From positions 36,319-100,318 of the forward strand of contig JBFMHM010000002.1 of NCBI GenBank assembly GCA_040753015.1: a stretch of DNA of 64,000 nucleotides, in the 5' to 3' direction. Made by a program: the position numbers and the translations under genes. Origin of the DNA: Candidatus Omnitrophota bacterium. GTDB taxonomy: Bacteria; Omnitrophota; Gorgyraeia; Gygaellales; JBFMHM01. The notes under the pieces were generated by a model. The model worked only from the letters and a program-made list of their open reading frames with translations, was not told the origin of the DNA and searched no databases. Position 1 is the first letter of the stretch, and each line of letters starts with the position of its first letter. This document shows positions 1 to 64,000 of this stretch, piece by piece.

Positions 1-394
1 ATTTATTATGGTAAAAATACCACTTATGTAAACCGGAAAGCACAGCAGTATTCATTAAAAATGCTTGCAATCCACCAACGGATTTCATTTTTCCTTTATA
101 AAAATATTCGAGGCCCCACATACCTTTCATACCAGCAAACTTTCTTAAATTTATCTGCTGCCTAAGACAAGTCTTGAATTGGTCAATTAATGGCTGTCCA
201 AAAATACACACAATATCAACGTCTTCTGTTTCTATGGATGCACATCTTAACGCTTCAAAGATTGTTTCTCTTGGTACTCCTGCAGCCATTTTAGCTCGAA
301 CTACACGCTCGCGGGAAATAGCCGAAATAATTTTACCATCTATGCTAATTGCAACTCCTGCGTCATGATCCGCATGTGTTCCCAAAACAATCAT
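1..394 (-). CDS. Carbamoyltransferase (NodU/CmcH family), N-terminal part only; 3' end runs past the window start
   Basis: Minus-strand ORF from ATG (reverse complement of 392-394) reads MIVLGTHADHDAGVAISIDGKIISAISRERVVRAKM. This is colinear with the N-terminus of the full-length paralog at 11971-13719 (MIILGISAGHESGAALLKDGDIIFAASEERYARNKM). The frame is open to position 1. It is absent from the ORF track because it has no in-window stop. Confidence 0.55.
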   Translation of the reverse strand, partial: MIVLGTHADHDAGVAISIDGKIISAISRERVVRAKMAAGVPRETIFEALRCASIETEDVDIVCIFGQPLIDQFKTCLRQQINLRKFAGMKGMWGLEYFYKGKMKSVGGLQAFLMNTAVLSGLHKWYFYHNK

Positions 395-27444: not shown

Positions 27445-28591
27445 CTAAAGATCGCGCCAACTTATCATTATTATGCAGACTAAGAATTGAGCTTCGCGCA
27501 ATCATCTTCTTTTTTTTAAGTTCGGCAGGATTAGATAAAAAATATTTAAGAGTTGTTTTTAAGTCATCTAAATTTGTAAGAATAAATCCGGAGTCCTTCA
27601 AATCATCGGTCACAAACTCATCTCTAACATAAGTTATGGCAGGCACACCAAAAAACATACTTTCAACTTGGGCATTAGCATAGTATCCCATTTTCATTTT
27701 GCCAATAGATAAATCTGCATTTTGATATTCTTTTAAAACCTCAAGATGCGGAATTTTGTTAAGAAAAAGAAATTCAATATTATAGCCATCTTGCTTTAAA
27801 CTATCTATGATGTTTCTAATCTCTTTGGTGTCTTCAATGCCGGGGTGATTTGTTGCGTGCACTATTTTGATGCTATCTTTTATTTCTTTACCATTACCAC
27901 TTGAAAAAAAGCTCGAAATATCGATTTCTGGAGTAAAAAAAGATAAACATACAGAATTATTTGGTACAAAATCTTTTAAATCTGGAGTTGTGAATAAAAA
28001 TAAATCTGCATAATTTGTAACTAAATTCCTTCGTTGTTTGACATAATCCGATTCGCAATTATATTTACCAGTATAATTAATAAAATAATCACAATTTTGA
28101 CAAATATTAACCTCGGGACTAATTTTCATATTATTTGTCCTATCCCTAATATCACATCCCCGGAAATGCACAACAACTTTCCGCTTCATTTTTTTAGCCA
28201 ATGATAACTCCCAACCTGAATACGAAATACTAAGCATAAAATGTAAATGCAAAACCTCGTAACGCGCTGCCACCTTCCAAAACCAATACATTTCTTGCAT
28301 GGGGCGTAAAAATGGTAGTTTTGAATAAGTAACTTTAAAATCAGACTTATCCCAATAACGACTAGTCCCAATAGCCAAATAATCGGCCTTTATCCCCTGG
28401 CGGCGTAAAGCAGAAACCATATAGTACGGAACATGAATCATATACGATATATGCAATACAGATTGTGAATAAGTATTATTTTTTAATAATACCAACAAAA
28501 TATAATTAATAGGATAAAATATACCGAGTGTTAATTTATAAATAAACAACCAACTTGGAAAAATATTTTTTTTAAATCTTGAATCTATCAT
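27383..28591 (-). CDS. Glycosyltransferase, GT-B fold (GT4/GT1-like C-terminal domain)
   Basis: C-terminal EVLKEYQNADLSIGKMKMGYYANAQVESMFFGVPAI resembles the GT4 donor-binding E-x7-E region. Confidence 0.45.
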   Translation of the reverse strand: MIDSRFKKNIFPSWLFIYKLTLGIFYPINYILLVLLKNNTYSQSVLHISYMIHVPYYMVSALRRQGIKADYLAIGTSRYWDKSDFKVTYSKLPFLRPMQEMYWFWKVAARYEVLHLHFMLSISYSGWELSLAKKMKRKVVVHFRGCDIRDRTNNMKISPEVNICQNCDYFINYTGKYNCESDYVKQRRNLVTNYADLFLFTTPDLKDFVPNNSVCLSFFTPEIDISSFFSSGNGKEIKDSIKIVHATNHPGIEDTKEIRNIIDSLKQDGYNIEFLFLNKIPHLEVLKEYQNADLSIGKMKMGYYANAQVESMFFGVPAITYVRDEFVTDDLKDSGFILTNLDDLKTTLKYFLSNPAELKKKKMIARSSILSLHNNDKLARSLVGLYRSINLSGDICAISEKN

Positions 28592-30480
28592 AATGAATCA
28601 GGATGGCTACGCAACCATTCTTCAAGAAAAAGTAAATTCCATAATTTTGCTGAACTATCATGAGCTTCTGAATGCCTATCCACTATTGAGGCGATTTCTT
28701 TCATATTGAATAAAAACGGCAGGTATTCGGAATCTAACAGTTTCTTTCGAATATTATTTTTTAATTTATTGGCAAACCAAATACCAAGCGGTATTCCAAA
28801 GCCCATTTTAGGCCGCTCAATAAAATCTTTAGGGTAATAACACCCTGCAATCTTTTTTAAAATAAATTTCTTATGATATTCGATGCCATTATTTATTTTT
28901 TCTTCTTTTAGTTTAAATTCGACCGGCATATTAGCTGCTGTTTCCACCATCTCATGATCTAATAACGGAGCCCTTACCTCAATAGAATTTGCCATAGATG
29001 CAATATCGACTTTCGTCAAAATATCAAACGGTAAATAGGTCATCAAATCAAGATATTGAAGCCTGCTTATCATTGGCTGATGACCTATATTCATCAAGTT
29101 TCTGCGATTTTTAGCAATATCACAAACAACGTCTCTGTATTCTTTCTTAAAAAGATTTCTTCGTTCGCCTGGAGAAAAATGTTTTGCGGTATGACAATGT
29201 AATTCATAAGCATGATTAGTAATATTTCCGGGTACGATTAGACGCTTAAATCGAAAATAATAATAATACCCTAAACTACGCAATTTTTGCTTAAATGTAA
29301 AATTCGACTGATTATTAGAAAAATCACCCTGCAAAGTTCGCATAACATATTCGTAACTGTTATACCCGGCAAAATTTTCATCACCGCCATCTCCACTAAA
29401 AACCATCTTCACATGTTTAGCAGCCATACGAGAGACATAATAAGTAGGAATACTAGATGAATCTGCAAACGGTTGACCATAGTGCCTTACTAAAAGAGGC
29501 AAGAGTCCAAATGAATCCACTTCTACAATTTCGGTATGATGTTCTGTGCGATTTATTTGAGAAGCTGTTTTTGCATAATTTAATTCTGAAAAATCACTTT
29601 CATTAAAGCCGATGCTAAATGTTTTTACTGGTTGTTCAAGTATATCCGCCATATATCCAGTGATTAAACTAGAATCAATCCCACCGCTTAAGAATGCGCC
29701 AAAAGGAACATCACTAACCAACCGTAGTTTTACTGATTCTCTTAACTTACAATCAAGCTTGTGCTCCCAATCTTCAATTGACAGAGAACAATCTTCTGTA
29801 AAATGAAGCTTCCAATATCTTTTCTTAATCATATTTCCTGTTAATAAATCAATTTCTAATAAATGTGCCGGCTCAAGAGAATATACCTCTTTATAGATTG
29901 TCCGTGGAGCATGAATATACTGCCAAGACAGATAATCATCTAAAGCATCAAAATCAACCTTAAAATCCCCGATAGTTTTATAAAGAGGCTCTAATTCGCT
30001 TGAAAAAAATAACGAGTCGTTTCTGATTGTATAAAACAGAGGTTTTTTACCTAATCTATCCCTAGCGATAATAACTTTTTGTTTTTTAAAATCTACTGCG
30101 ACAAAAGCAAACATCCCACGGAAATGCTTTAAACAATTATTGCCCCACTCTAAGTATGCATTAAGCACAACCTCTGTATCTGAACTAGTATTAAAAACAT
30201 ACCCAGTTTTTTTTAATTCTTCTTTTATAACTTGAAAATTATATATTTCACCATTGTAAGAAATTAAGCCAACCTTAGCATAATCCTGCATTGGTTGATG
30301 GCCACTTTCGAGATCAATAATGGATAGCCTAGTATGCCCAAAGCACACAGGACCGATGCTCTCTATACCGAAATCATCTGGACCGCGATGTTTAAGTAGC
30401 CCTATCCCATTTTTTACGATACCAACTGCTTTATTAGCCAGTTCTCGATTAAGACTTATTGCTCCGAAAATTCCACACAT
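28588..30480 (-). CDS. Asparagine synthetase B-like amidotransferase, paralog 3
   Basis: MCGIFGAIS N-terminus, AFLSGGIDSS PP-loop. Confidence 0.85.
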   Translation of the reverse strand: MCGIFGAISLNRELANKAVGIVKNGIGLLKHRGPDDFGIESIGPVCFGHTRLSIIDLESGHQPMQDYAKVGLISYNGEIYNFQVIKEELKKTGYVFNTSSDTEVVLNAYLEWGNNCLKHFRGMFAFVAVDFKKQKVIIARDRLGKKPLFYTIRNDSLFFSSELEPLYKTIGDFKVDFDALDDYLSWQYIHAPRTIYKEVYSLEPAHLLEIDLLTGNMIKKRYWKLHFTEDCSLSIEDWEHKLDCKLRESVKLRLVSDVPFGAFLSGGIDSSLITGYMADILEQPVKTFSIGFNESDFSELNYAKTASQINRTEHHTEIVEVDSFGLLPLLVRHYGQPFADSSSIPTYYVSRMAAKHVKMVFSGDGGDENFAGYNSYEYVMRTLQGDFSNNQSNFTFKQKLRSLGYYYYFRFKRLIVPGNITNHAYELHCHTAKHFSPGERRNLFKKEYRDVVCDIAKNRRNLMNIGHQPMISRLQYLDLMTYLPFDILTKVDIASMANSIEVRAPLLDHEMVETAANMPVEFKLKEEKINNGIEYHKKFILKKIAGCYYPKDFIERPKMGFGIPLGIWFANKLKNNIRKKLLDSEYLPFLFNMKEIASIVDRHSEAHDSSAKLWNLLFLEEWLRSHPDSL

Positions 30481-37555: not shown

Positions 37556-38388
37556 AATACATCCCCAAAAGAAACCTTTAATTTTCGAAACATTCGATAC
37601 CCTAGGCAAAATATAGTTAAACTTATTACAATAAATGTTACCCACGCCTGATAATGCTCAAATCTACCAAAATAAAACACATCTTGATAGCACCAAACCA
37701 TATAACTAAATGGATTTAAATATACTACTGGCCGAAAAATATTTGGCACCATTTCTGGAAGATAAAATATAGGCATGGCATACATACCAACAACGCAAAA
37801 TACCTGAACAAAATCTTTAATATCACGAAAATATACTCCTATTGATGATAGAATATAAGAAACACCAATCATCGCAAGTATCTGAAATAAGAAAAGCGCG
37901 GGAATCAAAATATACGTCCAAGGTAATAATCCGTTTTTTATTAAAACATATAAAATTAACATCGTGGTATAAATTATCTGTGTCAAAAATGCCGCAATTA
38001 CGCCTTTGACCGGCAAAATTTCAATAGGAAAAATAACTTGTTTAACTAAATTTGCATTACCAACAACTGCCGAAGAAGCCTTGTTCATAGACTCCTGAAA
38101 CGACATCCAAGGGATAAGTCCAGAAAGAATATAGGTTGTATAATCTAATGGCATCTCTATTGTGCCGCCAATCTTTATTTTAAATACAAAAGCAAAAACA
38201 AAAACATATATGCCCATCAAAACCATTGGATGACCGATAACCCAAAACAACCCAAGCACTTGCCCTGCATAACGGTCTTTAATTTCCCGCTTTGCCATCT
38301 CACAAGTAAGCTGACGATACCTAGTTAAAAGCGCGATAATCTCGCGGAATGCCTGAAAGTGATTTTTAAAATTAAACAGAGACTTCAT
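37552..38388 (-). CDS. wzm: ABC-2 type transporter permease, Wzm/TagG type
   Basis: 6-TM ABC-2 permease pattern with N-terminal FQAFREIIALLTRYRQLTCEMAKREIKDRYAGQVLGLFW. Start trimmed to Met28 of the long ORF (ATG 38386-38388) to avoid ~100-nt overlap with AsnB-4. Confidence 0.75.
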   Translation of the reverse strand: MKSLFNFKNHFQAFREIIALLTRYRQLTCEMAKREIKDRYAGQVLGLFWVIGHPMVLMGIYVFVFAFVFKIKIGGTIEMPLDYTTYILSGLIPWMSFQESMNKASSAVVGNANLVKQVIFPIEILPVKGVIAAFLTQIIYTTMLILYVLIKNGLLPWTYILIPALFLFQILAMIGVSYILSSIGVYFRDIKDFVQVFCVVGMYAMPIFYLPEMVPNIFRPVVYLNPFSYMVWCYQDVFYFGRFEHYQAWVTFIVISLTIFCLGYRMFRKLKVSFGDVL

Positions 38389-40312
38389 AACATTCTTTAT
38401 TAAAATTCGGTGTTGTAATCGTTTTTGTCTCATAGCTACCGCAAAGAAAAATCTTACACCACCACTCAAAATTCAACAATGACCAAATAAAAAGACGGCG
38501 GTTTTGTTTTCCTTGTAAATGATCATTAATTAAATTATTGGTTGTTTTGTAATCAAAAAAATTGTATATATTTGCTTTCTTGTCCATAAGCAGTTCTTTT
38601 ACATATTCAACGCTTTCTCCTTTAAACCAACTTGCATCCGGGCCACTAAAACCCTGTTTATATTGATTTGTAATACTGTCTCCACTATACTTCCTAAGGG
38701 ATTTCCGCAGAATAACTTTTCCATCGTTCATCTTCTCAAAATATTTTTCTTTCTTCACAAACTCATCTTCATCAATATCAAGAATACTATTTATATTTTT
38801 AAGTTTTAACTTTACTGGAACTTTTAAACCAAAATCTACCAAATTATTATCTAAAAATGGAACTCGCTCTTCGAGTCCTTGAGCCATGCTCAATTTATCG
38901 CTCAAAATTAATAACCCGTGTAAAAAAGTTTTTGCTTCAAAATACAATGAGTGATTTATGTAATCTTCTGGCTTTTGAGGAACTAGCTTATGACTATTAA
39001 AAACATTCTTAAAAATATCTTCTGTCCAAACACCGTTTACGTCTTGCCAAATTGGCGCAAATAAGCCCTGTAATGTTTTATTCGGAACAAGCCTCTGCCA
39101 ATATTTATAGTAACCCTGCGTATATTCATCGAAGCTTTTTGCTCGTAATGCTTTATAATATCTCCATGGGTACCCTGCAAAAAGTTCATCGCCACCACAT
39201 CCCGAAAGACAAACCTTAACAAATCGAGAAGCAAGCTTTGCTGCATAAAAATTAGGATAACACTGCCCAAGCCGTAAATCTTCTAAAGCCCAAACCAGAT
39301 TCGGAATACAGCGCTTCATATCACCCGACTTTAAAACCATCTCATAATGTTCGGTCTGGTATAGATAAGAAATGTGCTCTGCTTTTTCTCTCTCATCAAA
39401 AGATAATTCTAAACCAGACGCTGACGATAAATCAAAACCAATACAAAAAGTCTTAAAATCCTTAAGATGTTGAGATGCAATTGCAACTATTGAACCCGAA
39501 TCTATACCGCCGCTTAGATAAGAACCCACTTCTACATCACTGACTAATTGTCTCTTTACTGCCTGGTTAAATAATCTATCAACCTCTTCTAAATACTCAT
39601 TTTCCGATTTTATATTTTTTTCTTCTTCAAAATGAAAATCCCAATATTGCTTTTGTTCAGCTTGTATGCACTCCCTTATGTTAATTTTTAAAAAATTCCC
39701 CGGTGGTAAAATTTTTACGCCCTTAAATAATGTTTTATAAGTAAACGTATTTTGAAAAGTAAAATACTCCAACAGAACTTCATGATCTAATTCTCTTTTA
39801 AATTCCGGATGCTCAAAAAAAGCCTTTATTTCTGAAGCAAAAAGTAACACTTTTTCATTTTGCCAGTAATATAAAGGTTTTATCCCATATCGATCTCTTG
39901 CAAAAAATAATTTTCGCTCTATTTTATCCCAGACAGCAAAAGCAAACATACCATTAAAACGCTTAACACAATCTTCTTTCCACTGGGCATATGCATAAAG
40001 CACAACTTCAGAATCTGTGTTAGATTTAAAATAATACCCCAATTTTTCAAGTTCCTTTCTAATTTCCCGAAAATTATAGACCTCGCCATTATATGTAATA
40101 ACAAAACGCTTATCTTCTGTAGCCATCGGCTGGCGGCCTTTAACCGTTAAATCAATGATTGCAAGTCTACGATGTCCCAACCCAACATTCTCATCAATAT
40201 ACAACCCTTCACCGTCTGGCCCGCGATGACGAAGGGCGCTAGTCATTGTTTGCAATATCGAGTTGTATACTTGCTGCCCATTCTTATTAATAATCCCTAC
40301 GATTCCGCACAT
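38372..40312 (-). CDS. Asparagine synthetase B-like amidotransferase, paralog 4
   Basis: MCGIVGII N-terminus, YLSGGIDSGS PP-loop. Confidence 0.85.
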   Translation of the reverse strand: MCGIVGIINKNGQQVYNSILQTMTSALRHRGPDGEGLYIDENVGLGHRRLAIIDLTVKGRQPMATEDKRFVITYNGEVYNFREIRKELEKLGYYFKSNTDSEVVLYAYAQWKEDCVKRFNGMFAFAVWDKIERKLFFARDRYGIKPLYYWQNEKVLLFASEIKAFFEHPEFKRELDHEVLLEYFTFQNTFTYKTLFKGVKILPPGNFLKINIRECIQAEQKQYWDFHFEEEKNIKSENEYLEEVDRLFNQAVKRQLVSDVEVGSYLSGGIDSGSIVAIASQHLKDFKTFCIGFDLSSASGLELSFDEREKAEHISYLYQTEHYEMVLKSGDMKRCIPNLVWALEDLRLGQCYPNFYAAKLASRFVKVCLSGCGGDELFAGYPWRYYKALRAKSFDEYTQGYYKYWQRLVPNKTLQGLFAPIWQDVNGVWTEDIFKNVFNSHKLVPQKPEDYINHSLYFEAKTFLHGLLILSDKLSMAQGLEERVPFLDNNLVDFGLKVPVKLKLKNINSILDIDEDEFVKKEKYFEKMNDGKVILRKSLRKYSGDSITNQYKQGFSGPDASWFKGESVEYVKELLMDKKANIYNFFDYKTTNNLINDHLQGKQNRRLFIWSLLNFEWWCKIFLCGSYETKTITTPNFNKECYEVSV

Positions 40313-48642: not shown

Positions 48643-48658
48643 TTAATTTTAACCGAGC

Positions 48659-48770
48659 AATTTCCTACTCTCCCAATTCATTGCTAAATTAGTACCATCG
48701 GCCTCGAGAAGCTTAACTACCGTATTCGGAATGGGAACGGGTGTTTCCTCCTCGGGTAATATCACTCGGA
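48659..48770 (-). rRNA. rrf: 5S ribosomal RNA
   Basis: Reverse complement reads ...CACCCGTTCCCATTCCGAATACGGTAGTTAAGC...GCCGATGGTACT...GAGAGTAGG... with terminal helix CCGAG/CTCGG. Confidence 0.8.
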
Positions 48771-48797
48771 ATTCTAAAAAATATATTTGAAAATTAT

Positions 48798-51778
<2,981 letters not shown>

Positions 51779-51798
51779 CACAAATTTTCAAAGAACTG

Positions 51799-51871
51799 TG
51801 GACCTGAGCGGGATCGAACCGCTGACCCCCTGCTTGCAAAGCAGGTGCTCTCCCAGCTGAGCTACAGGCCC
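51799..51871 (-). tRNA. tRNA-Ala (anticodon UGC)
   Basis: Reverse complement: GGGCCTGTAGCTCAGCTGGGAGAGCACCTGCTTTGCAAGCAGGGGGTCAGCGGTTCGATCCCGCTCAGGTCCA. CCA not encoded. Confidence 0.95.
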
Positions 51872-51882
51872 GATAAACTTAG

Positions 51883-51956
51883 TGGGCCCGAGTGGATTCG
51901 AACCACTGACCCCAGTCTTATCAGGGCTGTGCTCTAACCAACTGAGCTACGGGCCC
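51883..51956 (-). tRNA. tRNA-Ile (anticodon GAU)
   Basis: Reverse complement: GGGCCCGTAGCTCAGTTGGTTAGAGCACAGCCCTGATAAGACTGGGGTCAGTGGTTCGAATCCACTCGGGCCCA. Confidence 0.95.
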
Positions 51957-52162
51957 AAAATTTACAAATGTCTCACCCATAACTCAATCTAATCTCAGCC
52001 AAAGGCTGATCCGCCTCTGGCGGAAACTGAGCTACGGGCCCATTCAAATCTAGCAAATTGCCCTGATTCAATCTGCATCATATAAATTTAATAGCCAAGC
52101 CGGAGAATTGATTCGGCTTATTATTTTGTTTTGTTACTTATTGCCTCTCTAAAAAAAATAGA

Positions 52163-53757
<1,595 letters not shown>

Positions 53758-53980: not shown

Positions 53981-54832
53981 ATGAAAAAAACATTCTTATG
54001 GTTATCTTTATTAATATTGCTAACTATTTTTACCCTAGTATTAAAACCAACCCCTCTATATATAAGCGGATGGATTGCCTATTGGGATTTTGATCAAAGC
54101 ATTAACACGTTAAACGCTAACAAACACATTCTCAATGAAATTAATCCGTTTATTTATTCCCTTGATAAACAAGGTAACATCATTTGTCTTATAAGTCAAG
54201 ATAAAATAAATGCATTAAAAAAAATAGAAATCAAAAAATTTATTCCTACAATTGTAAATGATGTTATTGATACCTCTTCTAATAAGCGCATATTAAAAGA
54301 TTCAGGCATAATCCATGAAATTTTATCAAATAAAGACCTGATGAATAAGCATATCGATCAAATAGTAGAATTAGTTAAGAATAACAACTATACTGGTATT
54401 GATATTGATTACGAAAAAATAAACCCAAAAGATTATGACATGTTCCTTGTTTTTATAAGAAATTTATCTACATCGTTGCGCGAAAATAAAAAAGAACTTA
54501 GTGTTACATTAGAGCCAAAATATATTTTAAAAAATACCGGCCTCAATATAAAACTTATCGCTAAATATAGTGATAAAATAAATATTATGTGTTACAATTA
54601 CCCATCTAACAAAACAAACCAAACCACTCCTTTATTTTGGCTAAATGAAATTATCCAAAAAGCAATAAAACTTATACCGCTTAAAAAAATTAGTTTAGCA
54701 TTGAGCATGCTTAAAGAAAACGAAGATAGCATTATAGAAAAAATAAAACTAATAAAAAAATATAAAATCCATAAAATTGCGATCTGGCGGATCGGAACGG
54801 CTGCGATTCTTAAATCTTTCCAAAAATCATGA
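53981..54832 (+). CDS. Glycoside hydrolase family 18-like (chitinase/YaaH-like) domain protein with N-terminal signal/anchor
   Basis: GH18 strand-1 pattern ISGWIAYWD. Catalytic-region motif NNYTGIDIDYE (DxDxE with the first Asp replaced). N-terminal hydrophobic LWLSLLILLTIFTLVL. Confidence 0.5.
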   Translation: MKKTFLWLSLLILLTIFTLVLKPTPLYISGWIAYWDFDQSINTLNANKHILNEINPFIYSLDKQGNIICLISQDKINALKKIEIKKFIPTIVNDVIDTSSNKRILKDSGIIHEILSNKDLMNKHIDQIVELVKNNNYTGIDIDYEKINPKDYDMFLVFIRNLSTSLRENKKELSVTLEPKYILKNTGLNIKLIAKYSDKINIMCYNYPSNKTNQTTPLFWLNEIIQKAIKLIPLKKISLALSMLKENEDSIIEKIKLIKKYKIHKIAIWRIGTAAILKSFQKS

Positions 54833-54865: not shown

Positions 54866-54894
54866 TTGACAAAATCAACAAAATTAGTTATTAT
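54866..54894 (+). promoter_or_regulatory. Near-consensus sigma-70 promoter for the AbiE-like pair
   Basis: TTGACA 54866-54871, 17-nt spacer, TATTAT 54889-54894. The ORF-track start at 54866 lies inside this promoter. Confidence 0.55.
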
Positions 54895-54928
54895 TTCAGA
54901 TAATCCTATTTTTATAGGAATAATTGAA

Positions 54929-55558
54929 ATGAAATATTTAACCTTAATACAAAAAATACAAAATAGTAAATATTATATTTTTTCCCTTCGCGATTTATTG
55001 ATTTTATTCCCTCAAGAAAATAAGAAAACTTTGCAGAATCAGTTATGTGAGTGGATCAAAAAAAAATACATCATCCGTTTAAAGCGAGATTTATATGAAC
55101 TCATTGATAAAAGCAAAGAAATTATTATCCCCGATGTTTATATTGCAAATAGGCTTTATCAGCCTTCTTATGTATCCTTGGAAACCGCTCTCTCTATTTA
55201 TAATATTATTCCGGAAGTTGCATTTGCCGTAACCTCGCTAACAACTAATGTCACGCGTAAATTTAAAAATAGCTATGGCCAATTCTATTATTTTTCTTGC
55301 AAGCCGAGCGCTTTCACGGGATATCAAATACAAGAATATGCCGGATTTAAAACAGCCATTGCAGATAAAGAAAAAGCCATTGTAGACTTTTTATATTTTC
55401 GATTTAACGGTAACAAAATCCCTGATTTTAAGGAGGAAAGATTTGATAAAGATATTGTCGAGGAAATTCGCTGGGATAAATTATTTACTTATGCTAAACT
55501 CTACAACCTCAAGGTTTGGAAACTTTCTAATTTTTTAAAGGAGTTTGTCGGATGCTGA
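54929..55558 (+). CDS. AbiEi-like antitoxin/transcriptional regulator (type IV TA system) - putative
   Basis: ~209 aa protein immediately upstream of, and translationally coupled to (ATGCTGA overlap), an AbiEii-type nucleotidyltransferase. Start taken at ATG 54929 (MKYLTLIQKIQ). Confidence 0.45.
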   Translation: MKYLTLIQKIQNSKYYIFSLRDLLILFPQENKKTLQNQLCEWIKKKYIIRLKRDLYELIDKSKEIIIPDVYIANRLYQPSYVSLETALSIYNIIPEVAFAVTSLTTNVTRKFKNSYGQFYYFSCKPSAFTGYQIQEYAGFKTAIADKEKAIVDFLYFRFNGNKIPDFKEERFDKDIVEEIRWDKLFTYAKLYNLKVWKLSNFLKEFVGC

Positions 55559-56337
55559 CATGGGATGGATTAATAGAACAAGCCAAAATATTGAACTTGC
55601 CATTAAATAAACAACGGGCAATTGTCAGGGAATATGCCCAAACAATTATTTTAAAAGGAATTTATCAAGCTGATCTCGGAAAAAAATTATTTTTTATCGG
55701 CGGCACTGCCTTGAGATTCGCTTATGGCCTTAAGCGATTTTCCGAAGATTTAGATTTTGATGCCAACAAGAATTTAACTTTTATGGATTTTAAACAAATT
55801 CTAAAAGTTTGTAATACTACGTTAGAAAAAGAAGGAATAGAAAATTCCACTACCTGTAAGGAAAAAGGCAGTTTATTAATCGGCCAGATTAAACTAACCA
55901 ATATTCTACAAAATTATAATATTACAAAATTAAAAGATGAAAAATTGATGATAAAATTTGAACTAAACAGGCCAAAATGGAATCTTACGGCAGAATCTGC
56001 CGTAATTAACAGATATGGATATCTATTTACAGCTATGCTGGCAAACAAATCTGTAATGTTTTCTGAAAAAATAATTGCATTCCTTAATCGAAAACGCGGC
56101 AGGGATATTTATGATATAATTTTTATGCTTCAAAATAAATTCCCTATAGATAATCATATTTTAAAAGCAAACGGCTATGAATTAAGCACAAAAGAATTAA
56201 TTCTTAACCGTATTAAAAGTTTAAAAAATAATGACTTGCATTATTTAACAAAACAAGTCGAACCATTTTTACTTCAGGAAGAAGAAAAAGATTTTATTAT
56301 TAATTCCGCAAATTATATCAAAGCGCTTTTAGCTTGA
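55552..56337 (+). CDS. AbiEii/AbiGii-family nucleotidyltransferase toxin (DUF1814-type)
   Basis: N-terminal NTase motif FFIGGTALRFAYGLKRFSEDLDFD (GGTAL ... DLDF). Confidence 0.6.
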   Translation: MLTWDGLIEQAKILNLPLNKQRAIVREYAQTIILKGIYQADLGKKLFFIGGTALRFAYGLKRFSEDLDFDANKNLTFMDFKQILKVCNTTLEKEGIENSTTCKEKGSLLIGQIKLTNILQNYNITKLKDEKLMIKFELNRPKWNLTAESAVINRYGYLFTAMLANKSVMFSEKIIAFLNRKRGRDIYDIIFMLQNKFPIDNHILKANGYELSTKELILNRIKSLKNNDLHYLTKQVEPFLLQEEEKDFIINSANYIKALLA

Positions 56338-56346
56338 TAATGCTTC

Positions 56347-59300
56347 TTATCCAATAATCGTAATTTGTACTTGTGAGAGGTCAATGCCGCCTGCCCCGTG
56401 GGCGTCAGCCTCTACGGGGCCGGTGGCCTGTGGTATTTCTACGGCTGTGGTTGCAACTATTAACACAGGTTGCGCCGCAGATAGCTCTCCTATATGCTCC
56501 ATAGTTGTATCTGGGTCGCCTCCTGCATCTCTTACTAATGCCTCTTGCTCTAGCGTTAAGCCACCTTGTAATTCAGCTGGTACAGCTGGGCTACTTATAC
56601 CGCCTTTATCTTCCTTCCTCTCCCATACCACATACACATCTTTAAATGAATAATCTTTTGGTAATGTATTCCATTTAATAGGTTCGCCTAATGTTGTTTT
56701 AGGATATTTTTTTCTTTCGATTGTTTTGTTTATATCCGAGCGGTTGGAAAGAATATTCCTATCAGTAGGAAAATAAAGAGCTTCAAAACCACCTGCCTCT
56801 GCAATACTAATAAGCGCTTGTTCAACTAAAGGATACAGTTCGCTTGCCTTTACTTGCGAAAGAAATTCCATACTTGGGTTTATCCCAGGGCAAGTAAGGT
56901 ATTTTTTGCCTCCAATAGTTACAATGTATAACCCGATAAAACCGCAAGCCTGATTGGTAGCTGTATCGATAATTGCAAGCGGTAAGAAACTTGTATCTTT
57001 CCAAAGCTTAATGTCCGGAGCAACACATACACCTGCGTTTAAGCCCCATAAACTAAAAGGTATGCCTTTTGCAATACGAAATTCTAATTTAGCGGTTCCT
57101 TTGGTGTAAGCAATAAACTTTGCCTTTTCCTGCCTTATAGTATCTAATGTTGGTTTAAAAAATGCCTTTGTTAGGGCAGGCTTTGACGCCTTTGGATGCG
57201 GCCTACGAGCAAGTATCGCATTAATCGCTTCTATTAAATCTGAATTGTTAATTAAGGGTAATATTTGAATTGTTATTTGGAAATTTGTAAACTTGCTTAA
57301 AACACGAGTTATTGCCTGTTGTTTACGAGTATCATCCAGTGCAGCATTTGACCAGATACTTTCTAATATAGTTTTGATTGATTCTGGGTTTGCAATAGAG
57401 TCACCTTCTTCAGAAAGACTAGGAAATGTGTCCGCATCTAATTCGTCTAACACTTCTTTAAATAGCTTAGACAGCTCCTCTTTATCCGTAAACATAATCT
57501 CAAATATTTGGACGCTTGAGTAATCATCAGTAATTGCCTCAAGCCGCTGTTTTATGGCTTCATCATAACTTGCAAACTTATAGAACTTAGCTAAAGCTTC
57601 TTCCTGCTTGGTTGAATTGAGAAGATCAGCTAACCACTCAACTAAAGCTTGTTTAAATGCCTTTTTTGCTTCTCTTTGTTCTTCTGTTCGTTTTGCCTCA
57701 TCAGAAATAGAGCAACGCAGGTGGTTAAGTAAAGAAGAAAGTTTGCTATCCGGATCAAAGGTTTTTCCAGGGGCTAACCTATATTCAACAAGGTTAAGGC
57801 TGCTTTCGCCAAAGCTTCTATCTTTAAGCTCGGCTGGGATATGTTTTCTTAGGTCACCTGCTTGGCTAAAGCTATTGAAATGGTTTTGTATATCTTCTTT
57901 TTTTACAAAAGATGCCCCTGATGCCGGAATAGCCATTTGCAATACTGCAATAACTGCTTCATTAAGTTCTGTTTTAGGGATACCTTTAGCTTTTAAGAGC
58001 TGTCTTAATAATGCAAGCTCCTGTTCACCGACTTTATCTTGGACAATTTGCTGTTTAAAGGCAAACAATTCTTGTAAACCCTCTTGGCCTGTTTGTTTGT
58101 ATAACCTAAATAAGCTTGGGCTAAAAGAATGAGTTAGGTCAACAAATTCAAAGATTCGCCCTCTTTCATCATCTGATAAGCTTATATCAACGCTTCTGCT
58201 TTTAAGGCCATCTAAGATGCCATCAAGGACTTGTATTGCAATACGCCTATTATGTTCAATTACTTTTATGTAAAAATCAACTACAGCAAAAAAATTTAAT
58301 TGCTTATCTTTTATAAATGGAACATATTGTTCAACTAAGAGTTGAAGTAGAGAACCTGAAGTATACTTATCGCTAGCAGCAAATAACGCTAATAATTTTA
58401 TAACAATATCATCCCAGTTAGCTCTTAGGAAGTCTTCGCCGAGGCTGTTTTTAAGTGCGGGAAGGCTGTGCTGGAATAAATACCAGGCATTTCCTCCTGC
58501 GGCAATACCTAATCGCACAATATCATCCCAGTTAGCTCTTAGGAAGTCTTCGCCGAGGCTGTTTTTAAGTGCGGGAAGGCCGTGCTGGAATAAACCCCCG
58601 GCATTTCCTCCTGCGGCATTTGCTAATTGTACAAGCTGATTGCCTACAGTATTTAGCGATGCTGCATCAGTAATTAAGCCAAGATCCTTTGCAAAAGGAA
58701 GGCCGTAGAAGAATAAATACAAGGCATTTCCTCCTGCGGCAATACCTAATCGCACAATATCATCCCAGTTAGCTCTTAGGAAGTCTTTGCCAAGGCTGGT
58801 TTTAAGTACGGGAAGGCCGTACTGGAATAAACCCCCGGCATTTCCTCCTGCGGCATTTGCTAATTGTACAAGCTGATTGCCTACAGTATTTAGCGATGCT
58901 GCATCAGTAATTAAGCCAAGATCCTTTGCAAAAGGAAGGCCGTGCTGGAATAAAGACAAGGCATTTCCTCCTGCGGCATTTGCTAATTGTACAAGCTGAT
59001 TGCCTACAGTATTTAGCGATGCTGCATCAGTAATTAAGCCAAGATCCTTTGCAAAAGGAAGGCCGTGCTGGAATAAACCCCCGGCATTTCCTCCTGCGGC
59101 AATACTTAATCGCACAATATCATCCCAGTTAGCTCTTAGGAAATCTTCGCCGAGGCTGTTTTTAAGTGCGGGGAGGCCGTGCTGGAATAAATTCCAGGCA
59201 TTTTCTCCTGCGGCATCATATAGTTTCTTAAAATAAATATATCCGTACTCATCGATAATAAACCTATAAAGATTTTTCCAATTTGTGCCTATTTCAAAAT

Positions 59301-61134
59301 TTTTGCTAGATAAGAATTCTTTTGCTGCTTGTTCTTCGTCTGGCAATTGTTTATTTCTATTTAATATTGCCCTCTTTATTCTTAGATAAAGTTCTTTTGT
59401 ATCCTGCCACATTAGTTGTAAATTAGTGCTCCCATCTTTCCTTAAATAGGCATTGTAATTTCGTTTACATAAAAAACTTAACAATAAAATTACCGGATTC
59501 ACTCCTGAACCATAAAAAGTAATTTCGTCATTATCTTGTGCTGCTCCTCCTACTGGAAAACTTGCCTCGACTTTAATATCACCTGTAGCAACTGCCCTGA
59601 ATTGACGAGCTGAAGCTGAATCTGCTACAGTAGTTGCTCCGGCAAACGCTCCCAACTCCACACCACCACTCACATAACTTCTTCGAATTTGGCGAGCCAC
59701 TGGCGTATCGCCAATTCGATCCTGAGCACTGTCGAAGGATCTTGTAGTTTTAGTAAGGTGGTATTCTCCTTGTTTTACTGAGTCTAAGTATGCGGCAAAG
59801 ATTTGTTGCGGGGTTATTAGATCCTTAGATATTAGCCCCCTTAGATTATTAGAGTTAATTATCTGCGCAAAAGCATTTGCCCTAAACCAGTCAGACCGCT
59901 TCGCTGATGGTATAGGGTCACCCTGAACCGTGCTTTGCTCTGGTTCAGGGCTGAGTTCTTTAGAAATTAGGCCATTCAAATTGTTTGTGTTGATAATTGA
60001 TGAAAAAGAATCTGTAGGGGCGAAACCATGTTTTCGCCCATCAGTTATAGGGCGATTACGCGCCTGCCTACCGGCAAGGCAGGGAATCGCCCCTACGTTA
60101 TCTTGCCCTATACCAGAGCTCGCTTCGCTCGCACGGTATAGGGTAAGCGCTTTGCGCTTATACCATTTAGCAAGTATTATTGCATTGTAAATTTGTCTTA
60201 GTGGCTCATAGCTTGAGTCATGGTTAACTTTATAGGTTAGGTTAGGAAGTATTAGTTCTTTTAGTTGGGATTCACAGTAGGATTGTAGTTCTTCAGTTCG
60301 ACTGTTCGTCAGTTCTTCGGTTCTTCGGTTTTGTTCTTCTTTTTGATTTTTGGTTTGTATATTTGATTTTTGATATTTGATATTTGATTTTTCAAGGTAT
60401 TCACTTTCCAGTAACACTTTCAGTGTTGATTTGGTAATTACACAGCTACCTTTACCGTCTTCGTATACTTCTGCTTTGTCTGGGACAATCCAGACACGGA
60501 AGGTGATTGGAATGTTTAATTTATCTGTAGGGGCGAAACCATGTTTTCGCCCATCAGTTATAGGGCGATTACGCGCCTGCCTACCGGCAAGGCAGGGAAT
60601 CGCCCCTACGGGTTGTTTCTGCAATTCTTTTGCCTTTTCAAACACCCTATTCCAATACTCTGTTGCTCCTTGTGATAATCCTGGGAATAATGCAAAGGCT
60701 GTGTCTTTCTTTAGCTTTAGGTCTAGGAGTAATAGATGCTTACCCATGTCTGTGTAGGCAATATTTGCTCCTGTAAGCCTATTAGGCTGGTTTGGGTTTA
60801 GGTTAACCCAGAATTCAGAGTCGTTTATGGTTAGAGCTGTTAGAAAGTAGTTTATGTTGGTTGCAAGGTTTGCTCTTTGGTCTTTGGTTAGAATTGTGTT
60901 CTTTGGGATGTTTAAATGAAACGATATCGTTTCATTTAAACCCTGAACCGTGCTATGCTCTGGTTCAGGGTAGAAGTTAATGCCCAATAATGTTGGCCCC
61001 GAAAAATCCGCTAACGCGGATCTCGGGGTTATGTTTTGAAAACCATAACAAAACTGGTTAAAACAAAAAATCCCTGCTAATAATAAGATAAATATACGTT
61101 TAATCATATATAATAAGTATGCACTATAAAACAA
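56347..61134 (-). CDS. Giant (1595 aa) secreted repeat protein of unknown function; N-terminal signal peptide, in-frame palindromic insertions, ~7 tandem ~41-aa helical repeats, unknown C-terminal ~400-aa domain
   Basis: Uninterrupted ORF. Signal-peptide-like MIKRIFILLLAGIFCFNQFCYG (the true start may be Met10, ~61107). The internal repeats are described in the separate repeat features below. Confidence 0.6.
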   Translation of the reverse strand: MFYSAYLLYMIKRIFILLLAGIFCFNQFCYGFQNITPRSALADFSGPTLLGINFYPEPEHSTVQGLNETISFHLNIPKNTILTKDQRANLATNINYFLTALTINDSEFWVNLNPNQPNRLTGANIAYTDMGKHLLLLDLKLKKDTAFALFPGLSQGATEYWNRVFEKAKELQKQPVGAIPCLAGRQARNRPITDGRKHGFAPTDKLNIPITFRVWIVPDKAEVYEDGKGSCVITKSTLKVLLESEYLEKSNIKYQKSNIQTKNQKEEQNRRTEELTNSRTEELQSYCESQLKELILPNLTYKVNHDSSYEPLRQIYNAIILAKWYKRKALTLYRASEASSGIGQDNVGAIPCLAGRQARNRPITDGRKHGFAPTDSFSSIINTNNLNGLISKELSPEPEQSTVQGDPIPSAKRSDWFRANAFAQIINSNNLRGLISKDLITPQQIFAAYLDSVKQGEYHLTKTTRSFDSAQDRIGDTPVARQIRRSYVSGGVELGAFAGATTVADSASARQFRAVATGDIKVEASFPVGGAAQDNDEITFYGSGVNPVILLLSFLCKRNYNAYLRKDGSTNLQLMWQDTKELYLRIKRAILNRNKQLPDEEQAAKEFLSSKNFEIGTNWKNLYRFIIDEYGYIYFKKLYDAAGENAWNLFQHGLPALKNSLGEDFLRANWDDIVRLSIAAGGNAGGLFQHGLPFAKDLGLITDAASLNTVGNQLVQLANAAGGNALSLFQHGLPFAKDLGLITDAASLNTVGNQLVQLANAAGGNAGGLFQYGLPVLKTSLGKDFLRANWDDIVRLGIAAGGNALYLFFYGLPFAKDLGLITDAASLNTVGNQLVQLANAAGGNAGGLFQHGLPALKNSLGEDFLRANWDDIVRLGIAAGGNAWYLFQHSLPALKNSLGEDFLRANWDDIVIKLLALFAASDKYTSGSLLQLLVEQYVPFIKDKQLNFFAVVDFYIKVIEHNRRIAIQVLDGILDGLKSRSVDISLSDDERGRIFEFVDLTHSFSPSLFRLYKQTGQEGLQELFAFKQQIVQDKVGEQELALLRQLLKAKGIPKTELNEAVIAVLQMAIPASGASFVKKEDIQNHFNSFSQAGDLRKHIPAELKDRSFGESSLNLVEYRLAPGKTFDPDSKLSSLLNHLRCSISDEAKRTEEQREAKKAFKQALVEWLADLLNSTKQEEALAKFYKFASYDEAIKQRLEAITDDYSSVQIFEIMFTDKEELSKLFKEVLDELDADTFPSLSEEGDSIANPESIKTILESIWSNAALDDTRKQQAITRVLSKFTNFQITIQILPLINNSDLIEAINAILARRPHPKASKPALTKAFFKPTLDTIRQEKAKFIAYTKGTAKLEFRIAKGIPFSLWGLNAGVCVAPDIKLWKDTSFLPLAIIDTATNQACGFIGLYIVTIGGKKYLTCPGINPSMEFLSQVKASELYPLVEQALISIAEAGGFEALYFPTDRNILSNRSDINKTIERKKYPKTTLGEPIKWNTLPKDYSFKDVYVVWERKEDKGGISSPAVPAELQGGLTLEQEALVRDAGGDPDTTMEHIGELSAAQPVLIVATTAVEIPQATGPVEADAHGAGGIDLSQVQITIIG
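58389..59214 (-). repeat. Coding tandem repeat, ~7 units of ~123 nt (38-41 aa; two alternating unit types), long stretches 100% identical between units
   Basis: Units of type AAGGNAxxLFQHGLPALKNSLGEDFLRANWDDIVRLGI alternate with type AAGGNAxxLFQHGLPFAKDLGLITDAASLNTVGNQLVQLAN. Nucleotide blocks such as ATTTGCTAATTGTACAAGCTGATTGCCTACAGTATTTAGCGATGCTGCATCAGTAATTAAGCCAAGATCCTTTGCAAAAGGAAGGCCGT recur three times. Confidence 0.85.
60012..60097. repeat. GC-rich 86-nt palindromic element, copy A (in-frame inside the giant gene)
   Basis: CTGTAGGGGCGAAACCATGTTTTCGCCCATCAGTTATAGGGCGATTACGCGCCTGCCTACCGGCAAGGCAGGGAATCGCCCCTACG. Terminal inverted repeats GTAGGGGCG / CGCCCCTAC. Internal hairpins GGGCGAAA/TTTCGCCC and CCTGCC/GGCAGG. 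Encodes VGAIPCLAGRQARNRPITDGRKHGFAPTD. Confidence 0.85.
60525..60610. repeat. GC-rich 86-nt palindromic element, copy B (100% identical to copy A, 513 nt = 171 codons away)
   Basis: Identical 86-nt string, same reading frame, different flanks. Confidence 0.85.
60911..60970. repeat. Two adjacent 30-nt palindromes inside the coding sequence
   Basis: 60911-60940 TTTAAATGAAACGATATCGTTTCATTTAAA is a perfect palindrome. 60941-60970 CCCTGAACCGTGCTATGCTCTGGTTCAGGG has 9-bp arms. A second copy of the latter, CCCTGAACCGTGCTTTGCTCTGGTTCAGGG, lies at 59921-59950. Both copies encode PEPE(H/Q)STVQG. Confidence 0.85.
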
Positions 61135-61242: not shown

Positions 61243-64000
61243 TTAGAAACTATATCTAAGCTGGCCCAGAGCCGTTGAACTACGATAAGTAGGAGTTTTG
61301 GAAATATTGTAAGTCAAGGAAGCATCTAAATCATCCTTTATTTTATAACCTATGGACCCTGCGAATGAATTTGTGAGCCTATTTTTACTAATTTTTTCTT
61401 TACCATAACCTAGAATATAGCTTAAATCGCAGTACAATTTTTTATTAAAAAAACTGTCTGCCAACCTGAATCTAAAATTATTCATCTTTAACTGTTGTGG
61501 GCTATAATAATTATCTGAATCAATTTTTGCATCGTCGTAAATATATTCATATGCTACATATGTATGAGGCATTGGCCAGATTAAATGCGACAAGCTCATC
61601 CTAGCGCTATGCCTCTGATTCTTATCATTATAATCACTATACTGATATTTACCATAGAGAGCAAAATCCAACGGTAGATTAGAATTCAACGCAATAAAAT
61701 TTTCATATGCAGTTGTTTTAGCTCGTACCGCCTTTAGCCTTTCAATATTCTTTAGTGATGTATTAATTATAAGGTAATCAAGAAAAGCAAATTTAGTTTT
61801 ATATCCTAACGAATAATTAACTTTATTGTATTCGCAAGAATAATCCTTATATAAAATTTCTGCTGAACAAGAATTTACACCATTTTTATATATTAATCCT
61901 AAACCGTATTCATTTTCGTGAATCTTACCTGCCCCTTTTTCTTCCAAATAAACCTTCGAATAAAATGGAGTAAAAGAAAAGTTATAATAAGGGCGAATGG
62001 TGAAATAATTTGATAACTTTATATTAGATCTATTACTACTATCATCAAAATAAGAAATGCAAGGACGAAGCTCTATTTTTTTATTCCCCCCCTTCCAACG
62101 CTCAACATCCTTAAGAAGCATCTGGATTTTTACCTGGCTGGATTCAGTAATATGCTTTTTAAATTCTTCTATTTTCAAATCAAAACCAATCTTAAAACGT
62201 TTTAATAAGCAGGGATCATCGCTGGTAAAATTAAATCCGGAATTATCTTGGATAAAACTAAAAAAATAATATTTTTTTACAAACTCTAAATTATTTTCGG
62301 GGGCTTGATTAAAATTTGAAAAATCTAATTGGCCAAATGATCCTTGAGGAAACGCATAAGCATATATATTATTATTTAAAATTTGTTGAAGCTTTTGTTT
62401 TGATTCTAGATAATCTTTTTCTATCCTTAACCTGAATTCTTCACTGCTTTCAAACCTATCTTCTAGCCATTTTTTATTAGCAAGAAATAAAGATTTATGG
62501 CCTTTGTTATCAATAACTATATCTTGATGCGCAAAATCCCCATGGCTTTGAATTTCCCAAATTCCGCTATTTTGATAACTTACTAAATCATTCTTGCTCA
62601 CAAAAAATTCGTCATTGCTCCCTAGGCAGGAAACTGGTACAAACATTACTGCTTTAAAATTTAATTCTTTTAGGATTGGCGTAGCATATTCAAAAGAATC
62701 ACGCCTGGCATCGTCAAAAGTAATCAATACTCCTTTTTTAGGTAGCTTCATTTTTCCTTGATAAGCATTATTTAAATCACTAAGCGAAATTGATTCGTAT
62801 CCAGCATCTCTTAAAGCCATCAACTGCTCTCTAAAATCTTTTACCTTTAAGATATCACTACGCTCAACATCCGATAATCCATGATATAATAAAATTAAAA
62901 AATTGCCTTCTTGAGAATATTTTTTATTTAATCTGATTAAAATATCTTCTGCCTCATTATATTTAAACTGATAAGCCAAAATCCTTGCCCTTGTTATTTG
63001 ATAATCAATATTTGCCCTATCAATGGCAATCAATTGATCATTAATATTGATGGCTTTTTTGTATTGCTTTGATTCAATATATAAATGCATCAGCCCAGAT
63101 TTAGCAGATAGATTATTTGGATTCATAATAATAATGCGTTCATATTGTTTTTTAGACTCATAAAATCTCTGTTTAAAACGAAGAGCATCAGCATACAGTA
63201 ATAACACTGCTATTTGACTCGAATCTATAGATATGCTTCTCTTAGCAAGCTCGATCACCTTATCATAATCTTTTAATTCAAAATTTATGCTAATAAGTTT
63301 ATTTATAATGCTCATATTATCTGGTATTAAGTGATAAATTCTCTCAAACATATCTTTTGCGGCTACAAGATTTTGCCTATAAAAATAATCGTTTGCTTTA
63401 AATTTTAAAGCGCTTAAATTATTGGAATTATTTTCTAAAATATGATCTGCGATTAAAAGCGCTTCTTTGTATTTACCTCTTCTATAAAGACAATTAGCTA
63501 ATCCAATCATATAATTTGCATCACCGGGAGATTCTTTAATCAACTTACGGTATAATACCTCTGCCTCATAGTATTGCTTATTATCAAAATGAACTCTTGC
63601 TAATATACCCATAATCTTTAAATTATTCAGTCTCCTTATATTAATATAACCTAAGCAAAGCGGATCGGTATCTCTATTGTTATATGCATAGGAAGGCATT
63701 AATTTAAACGCGATTTTGAAATTATCTTTTATAATAGATTTATCAATTCGGGTATCTGCAATAACAGTTTTTAAACTAATGTTCTTAAATTTTTTTGAAA
63801 AAAATTTTAACTGTTGATTAAGCTCGCAGTTATCTTTAGCTAAAATGCCCAAATCCCAGTGTTTTGCATTACTCATTACTAACATATCATGCCAAGAAAC
63901 ATAATGAGTATTACGCTCTTCCATGTTTTTTAAATTTAAAATAAATACAGCTTTGAAATTTAATTTTTTAATAATCGGGTTAACGATTTCGTATGTTTGC
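61243..64000 (-). CDS. TPR-repeat + NodB-type polysaccharide deacetylase + C-terminal outer-membrane beta-barrel protein (PgaA/PgaB-like fusion architecture); 5' end probably beyond the window
   Basis: TPR-like helical repeats (residues ~100-330). NodB motif GVLITFDDARRDSFEYATPILKELNFKAVMFV. C-terminal ~330 aa is rich in alternating aromatic/polar beta-strand patterns and ends LRYSF (terminal Phe). The frame upstream of Met 63924 stays open to the window edge and reads ...NPIIKKLNFKAVFILNLK, which resembles the in-gene ILKELNFKAVMFVPV. Confidence 0.5.
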   Translation of the reverse strand, partial: QTYEIVNPIIKKLNFKAVFILNLKNMEERNTHYVSWHDMLVMSNAKHWDLGILAKDNCELNQQLKFFSKKFKNISLKTVIADTRIDKSIIKDNFKIAFKLMPSYAYNNRDTDPLCLGYINIRRLNNLKIMGILARVHFDNKQYYEAEVLYRKLIKESPGDANYMIGLANCLYRRGKYKEALLIADHILENNSNNLSALKFKANDYFYRQNLVAAKDMFERIYHLIPDNMSIINKLISINFELKDYDKVIELAKRSISIDSSQIAVLLLYADALRFKQRFYESKKQYERIIIMNPNNLSAKSGLMHLYIESKQYKKAININDQLIAIDRANIDYQITRARILAYQFKYNEAEDILIRLNKKYSQEGNFLILLYHGLSDVERSDILKVKDFREQLMALRDAGYESISLSDLNNAYQGKMKLPKKGVLITFDDARRDSFEYATPILKELNFKAVMFVPVSCLGSNDEFFVSKNDLVSYQNSGIWEIQSHGDFAHQDIVIDNKGHKSLFLANKKWLEDRFESSEEFRLRIEKDYLESKQKLQQILNNNIYAYAFPQGSFGQLDFSNFNQAPENNLEFVKKYYFFSFIQDNSGFNFTSDDPCLLKRFKIGFDLKIEEFKKHITESSQVKIQMLLKDVERWKGGNKKIELRPCISYFDDSSNRSNIKLSNYFTIRPYYNFSFTPFYSKVYLEEKGAGKIHENEYGLGLIYKNGVNSCSAEILYKDYSCEYNKVNYSLGYKTKFAFLDYLIINTSLKNIERLKAVRAKTTAYENFIALNSNLPLDFALYGKYQYSDYNDKNQRHSARMSLSHLIWPMPHTYVAYEYIYDDAKIDSDNYYSPQQLKMNNFRFRLADSFFNKKLYCDLSYILGYGKEKISKNRLTNSFAGSIGYKIKDDLDASLTYNISKTPTYRSSTALGQLRYSF

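Follow-up and report, generated by a model that had tools for sequence, protein, structure and literature searches.

The alginate, cellulose, poly-N-acetylglucosamine (PNAG) and Pel systems are the models for how a polymer is pushed across two membranes while it is being modified. In PelB–PelA and in AlgK/AlgE–AlgX, the latter reportedly a modification–secretion complex, a scaffold of tetratricopeptide repeats (TPRs) holds a polymer-modifying enzyme beside an outer-membrane barrel. PgaB binds to the TPR domain of PgaA, and PelA binds to the TPRs of PelB and is regulated by them (PMC5933820). A covalent version is known from Zymomonas, where the periplasmic processing enzyme BcsZ is joined to the TPR-porin BcsC (Bundalovic-Torma et al. 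2020, PMC7112194). Here we describe a gene at the end of a 64,000-nucleotide stretch of a contig of a Candidatus Omnitrophota bacterium (JBFMHM010000002.1; the whole stretch is called the window), the product of which carries a signal peptide, an apparently dead and an intact carbohydrate esterase family 4 (CE4, NodB-type) domain, TPRs and a PgaA-type barrel in one chain. With a probability of about 80%, this gene codes for the section of a Pga-like synthase-dependent exopolysaccharide system that lies in the periplasm and outer membrane, with the components joined in one protein. An earlier examination of the letters of the window (the sequence-only reading) had taken porin and modifying enzyme to be always separate in such systems, a premise to which the BcsZ–BcsC fusion of Zymomonas is the one published exception.

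Architecture of the fused porin protein

The open reading frame (ORF) lies on the minus strand (61243-63924) and comprises 893 aa if counted from the first methionine in the window, but the frame is open up to 63999, at the window edge; the sequence there is QTYEIVNPIIKKLNFKAVFILNLKNMEERN. A database search gave the full-length protein, P0001, from an NCBI metagenome-assembled genome (MAG) of Candidatus Omnitrophota; it is encoded on a contig of 260 kb, has 1014 aa, is identical to the window part and is annotated just as 'tetratricopeptide repeat protein'. JGI metagenome contigs gave no exact match to a 31-mer taken from the edge of the window. P0001 adds 96 residues that lie outside the window, the start codon is predicted at ~64287 and the stop codon is at 61243-61245. 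The chain starts with MKRVILFLLFATFFLILSLFCNSAYA followed by DN, which resembles a Sec signal peptide (MKR, an h-region and AYA ahead of D); signal peptide and cleavage were judged by eye alone. The N-terminal stretch ends with SLFCNSAYA and a lipobox (L-[AS]-[GA]-C) is not present.

In Pfam searches, TPR families (TPR_19 with an E-value of 2e-20, TPR_2, TPR_14 and ANAPC3) were found N-terminal of Polysacc_deac_1 (PF01522), and an AlphaFold2 (AF2) model of full-length P0001 had a mean predicted local distance difference test score (pLDDT) of 84.9, with the domain junctions modelled at high confidence. The domains are listed in Table 1. At the position of the short linker between deacetylase and barrel, most relatives hold extra TPRs, seen by phmmer as an insert of 70–130 aa. 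Thus, all three domain calls of the sequence-only reading, TPRs, NodB and a C-terminal barrel in one chain, were borne out by Pfam, AF2 and Foldseek; the protein is longer than the window ORF, as had been supposed, and the signal peptide that was to be looked for upstream is indeed suggested by the N-terminus of P0001. The β-rich region had been put at ~330 aa, which proved too long: it measures ~277 aa.

The C-terminal ~300 aa gave nothing significant in Pfam or NCBIfam, the sole match being Porin_4 at an E-value of 0.44. Since a direct name was lacking there, homology to PgaA was shown via the family profile, the relatives and the fold. PF21197 (PgaA_barrel) matches in several relatives with 24–27.8 bits against a cut-off of 27. 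In dozens of homologues, the final ~270 aa are found conserved at the very C-terminus, and an alignment of 31 homologue tails (A1) was the basis of both a barrel model and a barrel profile. The AF2 model has 16 β-strands at a pLDDT of 95.1 and a predicted TM-score (pTM) of 0.87. In a Foldseek search of the PDB, the top match was the PgaA barrel 4Y25 (E-value 5e-12, TM-score 0.79), followed by BcsC (0.77–0.80) and PelB (0.75), while general porins reached at most 0.56. The A1 profile searched against PDB sequences matched 4Y25 across most of the barrel with an E-value of 1.6e-10; this was the only significant match, and the YxDxNxR and YYxP motifs of the family align with 4Y25 in it. The chain terminates with LRYSF, the terminal Phe being nearly invariant in the family. 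A soluble β-sandwich, the alternative that the sequence-only reading had set against a barrel, is ruled out by the 16-strand model and the fold matches to PgaA, BcsC and PelB.

The second CE4 domain looks active and PgaB-like, as judged from its residues. PF01522 was matched with 45.3 bits by the window part and with 53.6 bits by the full protein (cut-off 23.1). By sequence, its best solved relatives are PgaB (4U10, 3VUS and 4F9D), BpsB and IcaB, and the same proteins were closest by fold in the full-length model (target-normalised TM-scores of 0.81–0.83), the best being PgaB 4F9J and 4U10 with 0.82–0.83. All five catalytic or metal-binding residues (H469, D525, D526, H582 and H587) are present and align to the WH, TFDD and SH...H motifs of PgaB, where we take them to correspond to H55, D114, D115, H184 and H189. 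Y468-H469-G470, F524-D525-D526, R528 and D530 were invariant in 36 family members and H582 was nearly invariant. The motif order is circularly permuted, the catalytic His preceding TFDD, as in the PgaB/IcaB type.

The sequence-only reading had also noticed an echo of the deacetylase upstream, NPIIKKLNFKAVFILNLK and ILKELNFKAVMFVPV, and had suspected a second deacetylase-like segment. The resemblance is not due to chance: when residues 27–224 were compared with 455–709 by BLASTP, 27–146 aligned to 457–577 with 33% identity (E-value 8e-21). The duplication is therefore real, but every catalytic residue is lost. YHG is changed to YPK and TFDD to FSGG, the His pair is missing, and the catalytic positions read P-S-G-gap-gap versus H-D-D-H-H in the intact copy. 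From these residues, the upstream copy is a true internal duplication that is predicted to be catalytically dead. It was poorly modelled by AF2 (pLDDT < 50 for residues 119–219). In most relatives the pseudo-CE4 is encoded by its own gene just upstream of the porin gene, with a product of ~430–670 aa and an N-terminal hydrophobic anchor; these proteins had no Pfam match and a weak PgaB/IcaB resemblance by NCBIfam, and the fused domain is homologous to them (4e-25 to the protein of L001). In P0001, P0002, P0003 and P0121 the pseudo-CE4 is fused to the porin protein at the N-terminal end. Since none of ~55 pseudo-CE4 proteins kept the full catalytic pentad, the pseudo-CE4 appears to be a conserved non-catalytic module.

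Two further variants were seen around these domains. P0002 (residues ~300–450) and separate pseudo-CE4 proteins (for example L001, 8037-10013) contain a β-rich segment, FWIYARY...YLQQ, which had no Pfam match, may be a lectin-like carbohydrate-binding module and is not present in P0001. Further, a clade of porin proteins of ~1680 aa (P0165, P0169, P0184, P0201 and P0216) carries two full-scoring CE4 domains, each with an E-value of ~1e-82 to 1e-92, in place of an active and a degenerate copy.

Compared with the described systems, the protein shares with PgaA (PDB 4Y25, PF21197, TIGR03939) the signal peptide, the periplasmic TPRs, the 16-strand barrel and the terminal aromatic residue. Unlike PgaA, to which it is ~15% identical, it has a CE4 domain inserted between TPRs and barrel and a pseudo-CE4 ahead of the TPRs. 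Its scores with the PgaA models were 48.1 bits for TIGR03939 (cut-off 366.65) and 22.5 bits for NF007468 (cut-off 1043). The best NCBIfam match was PgaB (TIGR03938), with 92.1 bits against a cut-off of 321.9; it covers profile positions 3–267 of 621, leaving the GH153 half uncovered. With PgaB, BpsB and IcaB the intact CE4 shares the permuted motif order, the His acid, the Asp base and the Asp-His-His metal triad. Unlike PgaB, the protein has neither a lipobox nor a C-terminal GH153 (β/α)8 domain; the CE4 is embedded covalently in the porin protein and runs directly into the barrel, and the hydrolase function apparently comes from a separate GH18 protein. PelB–PelA and AlgK/AlgE–AlgX follow the same logic but bring separate proteins together non-covalently and involve different enzymes and polymers, and the Zymomonas fusion involves a GH8 hydrolase and a cellulose system, whereas here a CE4 and a dead CE4 stand in what would be an N-acetylglucosamine (GlcNAc)-type system.

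Table 1 Features of the fused porin protein and of the window. Residues are those of P0001, positions those of the window.
Feature	Residues	Position	Strand	Basis or remark
Signal peptide	1-26	beyond window edge		by eye
Pseudo-CE4 (predicted dead NodB copy)	~27-220 (in window 97-220)	63628-63999	minus	BLASTP self-alignment
TPR scaffold, ~7 repeats, 14 helices	223-460	62908-63621	minus	Pfam; AF2 pLDDT 93-98
PgaB-type CE4 (NodB), putative de-N-acetylase	457-715	62143-62919	minus	PF01522; PDB sequence and fold matches
Short helical linker, deacetylase to barrel	717-731	62095-62139	minus	AF2 helix
16-strand outer-membrane β-barrel	738-1014	61246-62076	minus	AF2, Foldseek, profile match
Codon of H469	469	62881-62883	minus	codon verified in window
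Codon of D525	525	62713-62715	minus	codon verified in window
Codon of D526	526	62710-62712	minus	codon verified in window
Codon of H582	582	62542-62544	minus	codon verified in window
Codon of H587	587	62527-62529	minus	codon verified in window
1595-aa ORF		56347-61134	minus	signal-peptide-like N-terminus; no Pfam match
AbiEii nucleotidyltransferase toxin gene		55552-56337	plus	PF08843, 70.6 bits
Presumed antitoxin, 230-aa ORF overlapping AbiEii gene		54866-55558	plus	upstream position; no Pfam match
GH18 glycoside hydrolase		53981-54832	plus	PF00704, 63.8 bits; convergent with porin gene as in relatives
rRNA operon, complete		48652-53755	minus	16S 52162-53755, 23S 48798-51779, 5S 48652-48769
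Two tRNAs of rRNA operon		51799-51956	minus	
Long co-directional glycan-type locus		429-43077	minus	
Four AsnB-like glutamine amidotransferases of glycan locus		1532-3451, 16524-18473, 28588-30480, 38372-40312	minus	

The cassette in relatives

When GTDB species representatives were scanned, 80 related loci were obtained, the source contig not being among them; they lie in Elusimicrobiota, Omnitrophota, Nitrospirota, Acidobacteriota, Planctomycetota, Verrucomicrobiota, Desulfobacterales, Binatota and Methylococcales. Genomes of the isolates Methylovulum psychrotolerans, Methylobacter svalbardensis, Crenothrix polyspora and Holophaga foetida DSM 6591 were among them. The order of genes in relatives is PilZ-GT2 synthase, pseudo-CE4, TPR-CE4-barrel protein and GH18, and neither a separate PgaB nor a PgaD was seen in these neighbourhoods, in contrast to a pgaABCD-type operon with its pgaB and pgaD. 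Where at least 4.5 kb of upstream DNA was available (44 loci), the synthase was found in 41 and the pseudo-CE4 gene in 42; a GH18 gene, mostly convergent and immediately past the porin gene, was found in 30 of the 61 loci with enough downstream DNA. In the closest relatives, P0002 (38% identity) and P0003 (35%), synthase, fused porin gene and convergent GH18 gene directly adjoin each other.

By its scores, the synthase of the relatives resembles the GT2 group of NodC, hyaluronan synthases and PgaC: it reached 164.5 bits with NodC and 133.5 bits with PgaC_IcaA, both under the cut-offs, and its best solved relatives were hyaluronan synthases (E-value 2.6e-37). To this the cassette synthase, known from the relatives alone, adds a PilZ domain at its N-terminus, in which the motifs RxxxR and DxSxxG can be recognised. 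The GH18 protein encoded in the window is related to those of the cassettes, with 36% identity (E-value 9e-40) to the one that L083, the closest relative, has directly past its porin gene, and an E-value of 4e-39 to that of L084. It contains the catalytic motif DIDYE, as read from the sequence; its solved relatives include chitinases, and it resembles the spore-cortex proteins YaaH and YdhD at an E-value of ~1e-8.

The barrel profile found 190 representatives of 50%-identity clusters at E-values of at most 1e-30 and 690 at up to 1e-10, and the CE4 domain was present in all 92 proteins of at least 800 aa among the best 150 barrel-profile representatives. The window protein is therefore a compact member, with an additional fusion, of an architecture that is widespread. 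In a plasmid search, CE4 and barrel were never found in one place, and the best annotated matches were pgaB and yadE. No description of a CE4–porin fusion or of the four-gene cassette was found in open-access full texts, which does not by itself prove novelty.

Two deviations from the cassette were seen. In five loci from MAGs of Micrarchaeota, Bathyarchaeia, Minisyncoccia, Saccharibacteria and an unclassified bacterium (L063, L075, L080, L081 and L082, the last being the unclassified one), the same synthase lies beside a CE4 protein of ~480–550 aa that has neither TPRs nor a barrel; this pair looks like the system in a form for a single membrane. In loci of Methylococcales (for example L038, L042, L043 and L072), the pair of synthase and pseudo-CE4 is 3–7 kb away from the porin gene and does not abut it, and a GH18 gene was not found in the flanks fetched.

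Surroundings of the gene in the window

Directly downstream of the porin gene, after a gap of 108 bp without a terminator-like site, lies the ORF of 1595 aa, which has tandem repeats of 237 nt (79 aa) at 58337-59216. It is not found at the equivalent position in relatives and, therefore, was probably inserted. The stretch between the GH18 and the porin gene, with the AbiE pair and the 1595-aa ORF, looks like inserted DNA as a whole since its G+C content is 0.37–0.41, compared to 0.29 in the flanks. Inside the 1595-aa ORF, two GC-rich elements of 88 nt (60010-60097 and 60523-60610) are 100% identical to each other. Each folds to a strong hairpin (RNA minimum free energy −49.7 kcal/mol, z −4.85) and is translated in frame as GAIPCLAGRQARNRPITDGRKHGFAPTD; they look like MITE/REP-like elements (miniature inverted-repeat transposable or repetitive extragenic palindromic elements) that lie inside an ORF and keep to its frame.

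Most of the remaining window is occupied by the glycan-type locus. Besides the four AsnB-like amidotransferases, the repeat of which is unusual, it encodes a carbamoyltransferase, a B12-binding radical-SAM enzyme, GT1 and PMT_2 (ArnT-like) enzymes and a sugar oxidoreductase/acetyltransferase; it is a heteroglycan-type pathway. Between it and the porin gene lie dnaG, cvpA and the rRNA operon. The sequence-only reading had offered two cargoes for the porin protein, the glycan of this large locus or a separate exopolysaccharide. The first was rejected because the locus is of the heteroglycan type and lies beyond dnaG, cvpA and the rRNA operon, and because the relatives own a synthase; the second is favoured by the synthase and the GH18 of the relatives.

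Proposed function and alternative explanations

Since the cassette is conserved in relatives, the porin protein would serve its own synthase. From the gene order of the relatives, a PilZ-GT2 synthase gated by cyclic di-GMP is expected just upstream, beyond the window edge, and would polymerise a GlcNAc-containing chain and translocate it across the inner membrane. By analogy with Pga and Pel, the pseudo-CE4 and TPR modules would take over the chain in the periplasm, the CE4 domain would remove part of its N-acetyl groups and the barrel would be the channel through which the chain is threaded outwards. Trimming or clearing of the polymer may fall to the GH18 enzyme, a role that the GH153 domain of PgaB, BcsZ or PelA has in other systems. 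The contact of the enzyme with the TPRs, which is non-covalent in PgaA–PgaB and PelB–PelA, is made covalent by the fusion, and the protein would, by analogy, do the work of PgaA together with that of the N-terminal half of PgaB. The general features of synthase-dependent systems were found as well: a TPR scaffold and a barrel, with a CE4 in the protein and a GH18 gene in the locus. The polymer could be β-1,6-linked and PNAG-like, β-1,4-linked and chitin- or chitosan-like, or of another type. Classical β-1,6 PNAG is made less likely, though not disproved, by the NodC- and hyaluronan synthase-like synthase and by the GH18.

Several points weigh against this assignment. The synthase is absent from the window and its presence is extrapolated from relatives that are at most 38% identical. 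PF21197 did not match the window protein directly. The GH18 gene of the window is ~6.4 kb away from the porin gene, behind the AbiE pair and the 1595-aa gene, and may be decaying since its product has 283 aa versus 305–378 aa in the cassette homologues. No experimental study of any cassette member was found in open-access full texts, and we infer the enzyme activity, the polymer and the export by the protein.

The strongest competitor is a diverged pgaABCD system that makes ordinary β-1,6 PNAG and in which pgaA and pgaB have been fused, so that the locus would belong to the Pga family in a rearranged form. PgaB and PgaA are indeed the nearest solved relatives of CE4 and barrel, the top NCBIfam match is PgaB and the synthase of the relatives reaches 133 bits with PgaC_IcaA. 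The scores are, however, far off the equivalog cut-offs (92 versus 322 bits for PgaB, 48 versus 367 for PgaA and 133 versus 422 for PgaC), and the synthase scores higher with NodC, is closest to hyaluronan synthases among solved proteins and has an N-terminal PilZ domain in place of PgaD. Moreover, the GH153 domain of PgaB is missing and its slot is taken by a GH18 gene, and the conserved pseudo-CE4 protein has no counterpart in Pga systems. We consider this explanation unlikely, although it keeps a real share of the probability.

Far less probable is a role of the CE4 domain on peptidoglycan, for example in local remodelling of the wall for passage of the apparatus, instead of on an exported polymer. 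Many CE4 enzymes are peptidoglycan deacetylases and the similarity of the GH18 to YaaH and YdhD would fit, but the permuted motif order is of the PgaB/IcaB type and PgaB is the best match. Furthermore, monoderm and archaeal relatives keep the pair of synthase and CE4 without a barrel, which ties the enzyme to the product of the synthase. Slightly weaker still, and in our view highly improbable, is a catabolic device for chitin or chito-oligosaccharides, with import through the barrel, deacetylation by the CE4 and the GH18 as chitinase: GH18 and CE4 are classic chitin-degrading families, and chitinases are among the solved relatives of the GH18, but a processive PilZ-GT2 membrane synthase precedes the gene in 41 of 44 loci, TPRs plus barrel are a hallmark of export termini and the barrel resembles the exporters PgaA, BcsC and PelB (TM-scores 0.75–0.80) much more than general porins (at most 0.56). 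Finally, although the source and the closest relatives are metagenomic, a fusion created by frameshift, mis-assembly or a chimeric contig was rejected as having next to no chance of being right, because the 2.75 kb of the ORF that the window contains show no interruption, at least 92 independent cluster representatives as well as isolates (Methylovulum, Methylobacter, Crenothrix and Holophaga foetida DSM 6591) have the TPR-CE4-barrel order, the N-terminal fusion is shared by P0002, P0003 and P0121, which come from other samples, and the junctions were modelled with high confidence.

Beyond the assignment as the terminus of a Pga-like export system, a bolder reading can be put forward tentatively, with the odds somewhat against it. 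According to it, the cassette would be a distinct, undescribed secretion class of many phyla, the polymer of which is not PNAG and is most plausibly a partly deacetylated β-1,4-GlcNAc chain (chitin- or chitosan-like) or hyaluronan-like; the dead deacetylase would be a polymer-binding co-factor and the fused version of the window would, as one polypeptide, handle the chain all the way from the outer face of the inner membrane up to the cell surface.

In sum, one chain unites scaffold, deacetylase and pore, which are split over two proteins in the PNAG machinery of E. coli. As a "Rosetta-stone" fusion, it gives independent support for the arrangement of enzyme, scaffold and pore that was proposed for PgaA–PgaB and PelB–PelA, and it would allow structural work on the entire periplasmic and outer-membrane part with a single chain as the target. 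The NodC- and hyaluronan synthase-like synthase, the GH18 and the pseudo-enzyme point to a matrix polymer, possibly chitosan-like, of which no description was found. The cassette is common in environmental and little-studied phyla but also present in cultured methanotrophs and in Holophaga, and these cultured carriers make the question of the polymer directly testable.

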